A stretch of DNA of 63,252 bases, filler included, from Hausera hauseri (lineage: Eukaryota), in NCBI GenBank assembly GCA_046269625.1. It is 12 parts of 12 records of this genome, joined end to end, with 100 filler letters (N's around TTAATTAATTAA, not from the genome) between each part and the next. Parts side by side here need not be neighbours in the genome. Positions count along the whole stretch, not along the records: positions 10,224 to 14,460 come from JBJURY010683661.1; 11 more parts are not named here. The stretch is one strand, 5' to 3'. The notes beneath the pieces are model-generated. The model saw nothing but the letters and a program-made list of their open reading frames with translations, was not told the DNA's origin and did no database searches. The first letter of the stretch is position 1. Each line of letters starts with the position of its first letter. A program made the position numbers and the translations under genes. Positions 10,224 to 13,200 of this stretch are shown piece after piece.

Positions 10224-13200
10224 GAAAAGATTATTTAAGGAAAGTAACAAGGAGTGTGATAAAGAACATGTTGGGAAAATTTTTGTATTTTGGTCAAGCG
10301 GCTTCAGAATTCTTAGCAATATATTTCATTATTAGTGCTTTACAAACCATATTCACTGTTCTCGGTAAAGCCTATGGAATCCATGCAGCAGTTGGATGCT
10401 CATGGAAAATCCTTATCGCAGCGATACCGGCAGTAGCCAGCTGTTTTTTAGCAAATCATGATGCAAAATGGAAAAGGAAAATAATAAAGGAAAAGAACAA
10501 GGATATTGAAAAGAATTCGCCGTATAGCAATCTAAATAACAGAGATAATAACGATAACGATCCAGACTCTAAACCAAAAAATAGCAGATATATAACCAAG
10601 TTTAAGCGATTCGCCCTAAGATCACGAAGACTAAAATATAAGCAGAAATTGGTTACCGTCCTGCCACAATTAGATCTTGCGGACGAATACCACGGACATG
10701 TCTATAATGAGCAGCCACTAATCAACCCATCCGCCCCTCAGTATGTGAGGCATGGTGGAATGTACCCCGCGTGTCAAGTGTTGCAAATGAAACAGGTGTA
10801 CGAAGAGAATGCTACTCCATATAATCGCGAACCTACGTGTAAAACGAACGATAAAAATAAAACCCAGTCTATTATGAGACCAGAAGTAGATATTGAAGTA
10901 AATTGGTATCCATTAACGGCATTAATAGATACAGGATCCACAACCACTATAATGGTGGAGAGTCAATTGCCCAGGGAGTTAGTAAAGAAGCTGTATAAAC
11001 CAAAGGATGCTCTGGTTAATATTGGAGCATTTGGAACTGAGGAAGAAATAAAAGCGGTCCTAGACACAAAAATTAAAATACGTAACCAGACGATAAATCA
11101 CAATCAGAATAACCAAAAATCTAACTAATGAAATACTGATTGGGTGTGATGTATTGCAGCAATTGGATAATATGTACATTGACGTTAAAACTGGCCAACT
11201 TAGAATGTTTGATGAAGACCGATATGAAGGATCGGTTTTTCAATTAAAGATGTCTTAATCCCACCGCGATCAGTAGTAGTACCTGGCGGAATAAAATATG
11301 AATTATTGTCGTCATTCGTACACTTCAAACCGTTTCCACAAATGATGGAAAAATACGATATTCTCGTGGCACCGCATGTAGACAGAATAAGAGACGGAAG
11401 AATACATTTAAGAATTTGTAATACAGGAACTAGAAAGAAACGATTAAGAAAAATTAGAATTGGACAGGTAACGGCGATAGAAGAAATATCAAGGGGATAA
11501 ATCAATTCGATTATCTCGGAGGTGGATAAGATTGAGAGAATGATGACGAAAAAGCTAAAGAAAGGAGTAAACCAACAAAAAGGAAAAAGGAAAAATATCG
11601 CTATTAAATGGGAAGAAAAATTACGGGATTGTAAGATTTTGGATAATGAAGAAAAAGAAATGTTAATTCAATTGTTAACAATAAGCGATTTGCTCAGAAT
11701 GATTATGATTTAGGAACGATGAATGTAATACAGCATACCATCAAGTTAAAAAAGGGCAAGAGAAACCCATAAAGAAACGACCATATAGATTGGCGTATGA
11801 TAAGAGGAATCTCGAAAAATTATAAACGAAATGAGAGAAAATAAAATAATATGACCAAGTTGTTCTCCATGGACGGCTCCAGTAGCGATGGTAAAGAAAA
11901 AGGATGGAGACATGAGATTTTGTATCGATTATAGAGCGCTAAATGAGATAACTGAAACAGATACATATCCATTGCCAAGAATAGACGAAATACTGGATAA
12001 GCTACATGGCGCAACCATATTTACCACAATTTATTTACAAAAAGGATATTGTCAAGTAGAAGTAAAGGAAGAAGATAAACCCCAAACGGCCTTTTTAATA
12101 GGTGAAGGATTATGGGAATTTAATAGGATGCCGTTCGGATTAAAGAACGGACCGCCAACTTTCCAAAGAGAGACAGAATTATTACTCTTAGATGCATCAT
12201 CGGATTTTAAACAACTCTTGAAAGATTTGCAAGACCTTTTTGATAGATGCGAAATAATGGGTTTAAAAATAAATTTGAAGAAATGTACTTTTGCCCAAAC
12301 AGAAGTGGACTTTTTCGGACATCGAGTTAATAGGTATGGAGTGAAGCCTCAGGACAGGTTATTAAATAAAATCCAAGACTTTCCAAAACCCACAACAGTT
12401 AACGAATTACGCCGATTTCTGGGACTTGCTAACTATTATCGAAGATTCATAAGGAATTTCAGTAAAATAGCTAAACCTCTCTACGAATTGCTTCGTGAAG
12501 ACTTAGAAAAGGTACTATAAACAAAGTTGTCAAGATGCCTTCAAGAACTTTAAGGAGAGATTACTAAATGCTCCTATCTTGATGCATCCAGACATGACTA
12601 AGCCGTTCATTTTTGTAACGGATGCAAGTGATTATGGAGTCGGAGCAATATTATCACAAAAAGGTGACGATGGCAAGGAACACCCAATCGCGTATGCATC
12701 AAGAAAGTTAAACAAGCATCAAAGAAAATATGCCGTGATTGAAAAAGAATTGGTAGCGGTAATATTTACGTTAGACGTATTCTCACCTTATATTAGTGAG
12801 AACAAACCCTTGGTGGTATATACCGATCATCGCCCGCTACAATGGCTTAAAAAGAATGAGAATCCCAATAGTAGATTGCTACGATGGGCTTTAAAACTCC
12901 AGCCTTATGTTAGACTTTCGATACAAGCCTGGCACGCGAAACGCGAACGCTGACTACTTATCAAGAATCCCACAAGAAATAGAGAAGAAAGAAGTGATAG
13001 CAGCTGCATGGAGTATGGATGGGTCTACAGAAAAGATAAAGGAGAATCAACAAGAGGATGAAGAAATAAAAGCTATCCAAAATTACATACAAAATAAAAT
13101 TGTGCCGAAAAATAGAGAACTGGCTCACCATTTAGCCAGATTTAGCGAATCATACGAAGACAAAGAAGGATTTTTGTATTATATACACCAGAATGGACCA

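Follow-up and report, generated by a model that had tools for sequence, protein, structure and literature searches.

The contig at nt 10224-14460 of the window (the window being the whole 63,252-nt stretch of Hausera hauseri DNA that was analysed) carries part of a Ty3/gypsy element in which the end of an envelope glycoprotein (Env) precedes the protease. The window comprises 13 contigs of 2.5-7 kb linked via 100-base N gaps, with a stop linker at 11 of 12, and because it consists of joined contigs no neighbour outside nt 10224-14460 need be genuine. The contig was found to contain no gag, Env ectodomain or LTR, and no repeats of 40 bases or more, and an Rfam search of the window gave no match. 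Between 17 and 19 records of run X1 extend past the element ends. The features are as follows (relatives numbered P are phmmer protein hits, and L001-L004 are loci from a metagenome scan).

10224..14460, + strand: whole contig, very probably an internal piece of a decayed GAG-ENV-POL Ty3/gypsy element; both ends are assembly gaps
10229..10576, + strand: C-terminal end of a chuvirus-G/gB-type Env, comprising membrane-proximal helix, membrane segment and start of the tail (PF24664)
10307..10363, + strand: Env helix, likely membrane-spanning (KD19 2.01; equivalent peak in 8 of 8 relatives)
10397..10450, + strand: second hydrophobic helix, bearing a conserved Trp and a Pro kink, likely interfacial or re-entrant (KD19 1.79)
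10727..10768, + strand: late-domain-like tail motifs, PSAP at 10727-10738 and M-Y-P at 10760-10768 (motif scan)
10877..11255, + strand: aspartic protease in the Env frame, with LIDTGS at 10922-10939 (Pfam RVP, motifs)
11228..11497, + strand: conserved protease-RT interval, where Burro has a dUTPase-like domain (tblastn to L001, L002 and P0018)
11855..12517, + strand: reverse transcriptase (RT), inactive (RVT_1, E = 6e-22)
12507..12950, + strand: RNase H (RH), in a frame differing from that of RT (RT_RNaseH, E = 3e-39)
12895..14116, + strand: integrase (IN), with zinc finger, core and following part (Integrase_H2C2, E = 2e-19; rve, E = 1e-9)
14217..14459, + strand: integrase C-terminal motif (14238) and an in-frame signal-peptide-like run at 14358-14393 (hydropathy)

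A stop-free frame of 300 aa (nt 10226-11125) runs up to the contig edge (10224) and is open there. Its residues 2-117 match the PF24664 Monjiviricetes_fusion profile at 527-641 of 653 (E = 2.8e-11, 42.5 bits with a cutoff of 27), and residues 218-289 match Pfam RVP above cutoff (E = 1.4e-5). The Env end, the PSAP-bearing tail and the retropepsin are thus joined in one frame, and the junction is real and not a chance arrangement. The first-pass annotation, made from the sequence alone, had proposed both an Env part fused ahead of the protease and a tail with PSAP followed by LIDTGS, and these are the features now located. It had also drawn the ORF at nt 10256-11128; the open Env-protease frame stands, but its limits are not natural ones. 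The GTG at 10256 is no real start codon, as the frame runs open to the contig edge, and the stop at 11126-11128 was rejected as the gene end because the C-terminal protease motif (ILG-x-D type) sits in another frame, at 11130. The protease frame breaks near 11100, with the C-terminal part in nt 11097-11255.

Downstream, the matches to RVT_1, RT_RNaseH, Integrase_H2C2 and rve follow in that order, the Gypsy-type succession that had been read from the DNA by eye, and the complete order PR-RT-RH-IN is that of Ty3/gypsy (Metaviridae). Among solved structures, the RT is matched best by that of Ty3 (E = 4e-49), other solved RTs reaching 1e-28 or weaker. A Pfam search of the conserved interval between protease and RT (nt 11228-11497) found no match. 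The pol is spread over several frames, and the element as a whole shows frame changes or stops at about 11100 (protease), about 11500, 11700-11850, 12510, 12900-12950, 13790 and 14120-14220, the integrase being split between 12895-13806 and 13781-14116. The RT lacks YxDD, having a 13-residue gap relative to L001. This copy is dead and cannot be active.

A full phmmer scan with the window ORF returned 15 hits, and PF24664 is present in every one of them. A Pfam protease occurs in the same chain in 11 of the 15, P0012 is a twelfth by motif, and the other three are short Env ends (85-134 aa) without protease. As this query contained both Env and protease, and was therefore biased toward fused hits, the metagenome scan was run with Env-only patterns; at least four loci were confirmed among the 599 pattern matches listed. 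Three of these carry Env-PR-RT-RH-IN in one frame (L001, 3703 aa; L002, 3426 aa; L004, 2693 aa), while L003 is cut and ends inside Env. The same single chain is seen in P0005, P0006, P0018 and P0020. Overall, the relatives are single polyproteins of 2,600-4,800 aa with the order env-PR-RT-RH-IN and with gag in front where it is seen. Gag hallmarks lie ahead of Env in L001, L004, P0013 and P0016, including CCHC knuckles in L001 and L004, so the gag-env-pol polyprotein that had been inferred for the fragment is present in its intact relatives. A search for LTR pairs in L001, L002 and L004 gave none, and no tRNA was found in the loci. A pattern scan of IMG/VR gave 210 matches, none confirmed. Two weak tests, a word-index search for relatives longer than the ORF and a search with the Env-protease region of one relative, returned nothing and only that same relative, respectively.

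Several peculiarities of the relatives were seen alongside. In L003 a lone in-frame stop (L003:3058-3060) lies between a gag-like frame of 999 aa and the Env signal, reflecting either decay or read-through. Between two and seven protease motifs follow the Env membrane helix in 10 of the 12 relatives examined (L001, L002, P0002-P0005, P0013, P0016, P0018 and P0020), against one in the window element; the tandem copies might form a single-chain dimer. L001 and L002 have a separate downstream ORF (L001:12085-13470, L002:10617-12104) matching the RNase_T (DEDD) exonuclease, with E-values of 1e-3 and 1e-5, which recalls the DEDDy ORF3 described for rotifer LTR elements (PMC5408684). P0006 is labelled at NCBI as a Flavobacteriaceae MAG protein, probably an animal contig that was binned wrongly.

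The ectodomain, which lies off the window contig, can be followed in L001. An AlphaFold model of its Env and proteases has a mean pLDDT of 64 and a pTM of 0.34, with low confidence in the membrane region. The Env model matches the G protein of a chu-like virus (E = 5e-36) and herpesvirus gB (E = 1e-12), with TM-scores of only 0.14-0.24. The L001 ectodomain is accordingly predicted to fold like gB. The suggestion that the Env is a class III fusogen of chuvirus G/herpes gB type agrees with this model and with the PF24664 match in the window.

Further copies were sought in run X1, where 7509 contigs align to the element at 80% likeness or more, 6894 of them being less than 95% alike. Single sites in the membrane block are covered by 70-76 contigs, and the block is therefore part of a diverse multicopy family and not a one-off host fragment. 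The latter origin, which had been named as what would speak against the retroviral reading, was rejected on this coverage together with the presence of the same block in all 15 PF24664-bearing phmmer hits. One 555-base X1 contig covers tail to protease with three differences, and joints in other contigs connect the membrane block to the tail. No listed X1 contig spans the whole junction from membrane block to protease, coverage of the tail being low (depth 22-33 at nt 10549-10656).

Two hydrophobic helices had been claimed for the Env end, and both segments are present (nt 10307-10363 and 10397-10450), though the second is unlikely to span the membrane. The first peak is found in 8 of 8 relatives, but the second reaches a KD19 of 1.6 in only one of them. 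It appears in the L001 model as a kinked helix of low confidence. The FLYFGQ stretch of what was originally taken as the first helix has weak hydrophobicity (about 0.9-1.4 in KD19 windows) and is likely membrane-proximal, not membrane-spanning. On hydropathy, only one helix probably crosses the membrane. Pol works only in the cytosol, and a single crossing together with an interfacial helix is therefore the likely topology.

A further stretch of interest lies beyond the integrase. In each of the seven relatives whose Pol is complete, the same frame goes on to encode a signal-like run, then an ectodomain and a transmembrane helix (L001:9967-11205; L002:4712-5401 and 9002-10279; L004:7655-8518; and the C-termini of P0005, P0006, P0018 and P0020). 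In L002, an extra copy of this module is seen between Env and the last protease. The pattern C-x2/3-L-x-P/T/D-x-T-Y/H, of fibronectin type III (FN3) kind and formulated after the sequences had been seen, occurs in six of the seven and is absent from L004. Pfam returned nothing above cutoff for the post-integrase protein of the relatives. A model of the L001 ectodomain, built from a 4-row alignment (pLDDT 68), shows two FN3-like domains and matches tandem FN3 domains (Foldseek E = 1.8e-8), and one such domain taken singly gives a VIA Z of 9.0 and an rmsd of 2.5 over 83 residues. A score of 0.84 for FN3 in the Atlas counts as no more than a lead. An FN3-type fold is thus predicted from modelling. 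In the window element, the hydrophobic run at nt 14358-14393 (12-mer KD 2.68) begins 40 aa after the integrase motif; among 5100 shuffled 80-aa blocks, 25 come up to this value. A hydrophobic run is found in 7 of 7 relatives, in five of them 51-79 aa past the motif, and the tail of the other Gypsy integrase, used as a control, has none. From its placement, the run is likely the start of the second membrane protein known from the relatives. The FN3 part is not visible here because the contig ends 22 codons past the run.

Taken together, the contig very probably represents part of the interior of a decayed Ty3/gypsy LTR element of GAG-ENV-POL (Burro/GYPSM1-like) kind, with a free-living flatworm as the likely host and with the tail end of a chuvirus-G/gB-type Env joined in frame to the protease. 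A lineage that has lost the fusogenic ectodomain and retains just the membrane end of Env, to anchor Pol, living as an intracellular retrotransposon, would account for the lack of an ectodomain on the contig, for the absence of any second Env piece in the window (tblastn with eight Env-bearing relatives as queries) and for an Env end just 25-37% identical to the relatives. The PF24664 match, however, reaches the contig edge without a start codon, every long relative with the membrane block has the ectodomain, and the signal-like run after the integrase is also retained, which makes such a loss improbable. An equally slight chance attaches to a hairpin, in which both helices cross the membrane, the fused Pol is luminal and useless, a working Pol has to be made from an RNA that is spliced or started internally, and the link in frame is incidental. 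Two KD peaks are indeed present in the window element and in P0016, and downstream of the second helix the relatives lack a strong positive-inside bias. Yet the second peak falls below 1.6 in 7 of 8 relatives and is not called as a helix in L001, L002 or L004, the tail carries motifs of cytosolic type, and a signal after the integrase would be sensible only with a cytosolic Pol.

That a piece of an endogenous chuvirus glycoprotein, or a membrane fragment from the host, came to lie before an ordinary Gypsy pol, by chance or as an assembly chimera, can be regarded as very improbable. The assembly does consist of short contigs from a repeat-rich genome, three of the 15 hits are Env ends without protease, and the X1 contigs leave the whole junction unspanned. 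The same fusion nevertheless occurs in 12 of the 15 hits and in three of the four loci, and the 555-base X1 contig with its three differences, together with the membrane block-tail joints in other contigs, covers the junction in parts. The pol itself also sides with the Env-first relatives, the RT being 44-54% identical to those of seven of them and 32% identical to another Gypsy RT from the window; a tree of nine RT rows, none of them a named reference RT, left the branching without resolution.

PSAP and YPxL are textbook late-domain motifs, and the PSAP of the tail had been put forward as such. Among 16 sequences, the linker that separates the membrane block from the first protease contains PSAP in two and SAP in six, against shuffle expectations of 0.02 and 0.31. 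Twelve of the 16 have a hydrophobic-Y-P motif no more than 70 aa ahead of the protease (0.87 expected), and these counts are not fully independent because some of the sequences are close kin (L001 and P0002 share about 62% identity). PSAP is therefore above chance but was rejected as a conserved late domain; the conserved motif is hydrophobic-Y-P, which fits an ALIX-type late domain, or a sorting signal travelling with the Env tail. Aromatic-Pro sites are a type cut by retroviral proteases, and there is a fair-sized minority chance that hydrophobic-Y-P is instead the site that frees the protease from the Env tail, or a tyrosine sorting signal, and not an ALIX domain. Its location upstream of the first protease, at a distance of 16-48 residues in 12 of 16 sequences, and the occurrence of strict YPxL in only 4 of 16, would suit a cut site. 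None of the 19 later protease copies, however, has the motif ahead of it, and both PSAP and LYPSL stand at the end of P0015, a sequence that stops without a protease. The cut-site, sorting-signal and late-domain readings are not exclusive and can coexist.

An Env placed before the protease has been described previously. In the planarian Burro/GYPSM1 elements, presented as the first case, a mononegavirus-like env is placed in frame after gag and ahead of the protease within a single long polyprotein, and the elements are of giant size with accessory MATH, BIR, BCL2-like, ubiquitin-like and ankyrin domains (PMC6431247, Arkhipova and Yushenova 2019). The window element resembles them in having env in frame with the protease in one polyprotein and, likely, in its flatworm host. 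The relatives share some of the extras, P0020 (4844 aa) having ankyrin repeats, L001 and L003 weak ubiquitin-like hits and P0003 a very weak Bcl-2 hit (E = 0.2). The window element differs in its single protease and short 142-aa linker, and no ankyrin repeat or other Burro accessory domain is found on the 4.2-kb fragment. Unlike the relatives, Burro/GYPSM1 is described in the main text of its report without a post-integrase FN3 membrane protein (PMC6431247). The element is thus Burro-like but not assigned to Burro, having been likened to it by description and not by sequence.

GAG-ENV-POL errantiviruses with an HSV/gB-type Env are also reported from flatworms, bryozoans and nematodes (PMC13524379, Chary and Hayashi 2026), the table rows including nine for Platyhelminthes (Macrostomum lignano and Schmidtea among them) and ten for Bryozoa. 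They share with the window element a Ty3/gypsy pol and a gB-type Env ahead of it, and the element most likely belongs to this group; the survey, however, deals with intact copies, whereas the window copy is dead and cut at both ends. The words 'polyprotein', 'in frame', 'fused' and 'fibronectin' do not appear in the main text of that paper. It cites Sacco et al. 2022 for non-canonical nematode endogenous retroviruses with Env before pol and a glycoprotein from an RNA virus, and Dezordi et al. for chuvirus glycoproteins carried by mosquito BEL/Pao elements. Chuvirus and other Monjiviricetes glycoproteins belong to the same PF24664 family and give the fold matches noted above, but they are free viral genes or reside in BEL/Pao elements, and here the glycoprotein is fused to a Gypsy protease. 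The hosts of the Sacco elements, which reportedly have a continuous gag-env-pro-pol ORF, are nematodes, whereas a flatworm is the likelier host of the window element. As the env-before-protease order is already published, it adds little by itself (PMC6431247, PMC13524379). The possible value lies in the anatomy of the family as seen in the relatives, namely the second membrane protein after the integrase and the conserved hydrophobic-Y-P of the tail. No mention of a post-integrase FN3 protein was found in the literature, in terms of main texts ('fibronectin' occurs zero times in those of PMC6431247 and PMC13524379), and the figures, Repbase, the authors' sequence repository, Grohme 2018 or Sacco 2022 may describe one.

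An intact member would be made as one polyprotein threaded through the ER membrane. Gag would remain cytosolic, an internal signal sequence would place the gB-like ectodomain in the lumen, and one helix would return the chain so that PR-RT-RH-IN hang off the cytosolic tail of Env. The post-integrase signal would then send a mostly FN3-type ectodomain to the lumen, with the last helix as anchor, and cuts would be made by signal peptidase and the element's own protease. Pol would be packaged via its membrane tethers and not by a Gag-Pol frameshift, and PSAP or hydrophobic-Y-P in the tail would recruit ESCRT for budding of particles that may be infectious and spread from cell to cell. Herpesvirus gB-type fusogens need partner proteins, and the post-integrase protein, if it holds, is a possible source of one. 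Going further, it is conceivable, although we consider it rather doubtful, that Env-first gypsy elements are two-glycoprotein enveloped retroviruses, with a gB-type fusogen before Pol and, at the usual place of Env, a fast-evolving FN3 surface protein after the integrase. Their polyprotein would cross the membrane at least four times, the FN3 protein would serve as a decoy receptor or as the partner that binds the receptor, packaging of Pol would depend on membrane tethers at both ends and not on Gag, and the window copy would keep the start of the FN3 protein. Should these extras hold, they offer a testable model of Pol packaging without a Gag-Pol frameshift.

The host was assessed using an intron-containing calnexin gene (nt 46360-48691, + strand), which is on a different contig from the element. 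By identity, the best named match of the calnexin exon is Macrostomum lignano (72%), while plant and sturgeon sequences score higher in bits at 59-60%. In a tree of 32 of the 120 listed hits, with no nematode included, it groups with Macrostomum (84/82) inside a flatworm-containing cluster (88/91). The host is therefore likely a free-living flatworm, as far as this one gene can indicate.

Other contigs of the window hold two more decayed Gypsy elements (nt 30600-34600, - strand, and 58380-60140, + strand), neither of which matched the Env of the relatives by tblastn. An intact 1271-aa frame at nt 41297-45112 (- strand) resembles, on visual inspection, a family B DNA polymerase of Maverick/Polinton type, and decayed pieces of the same polymerase-like frame lie at nt 6400-9000 and 20900-23900 (- strand). 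The contig at nt 14561-18530 is a (TTCG)n microsatellite, and the repeated-looking frames at nt 50068-57758 are probably satellite. A frame cut by a gap at nt 35689-36446 (- strand) resembles, by eye, the membrane domain of ABCB/P-glycoprotein.
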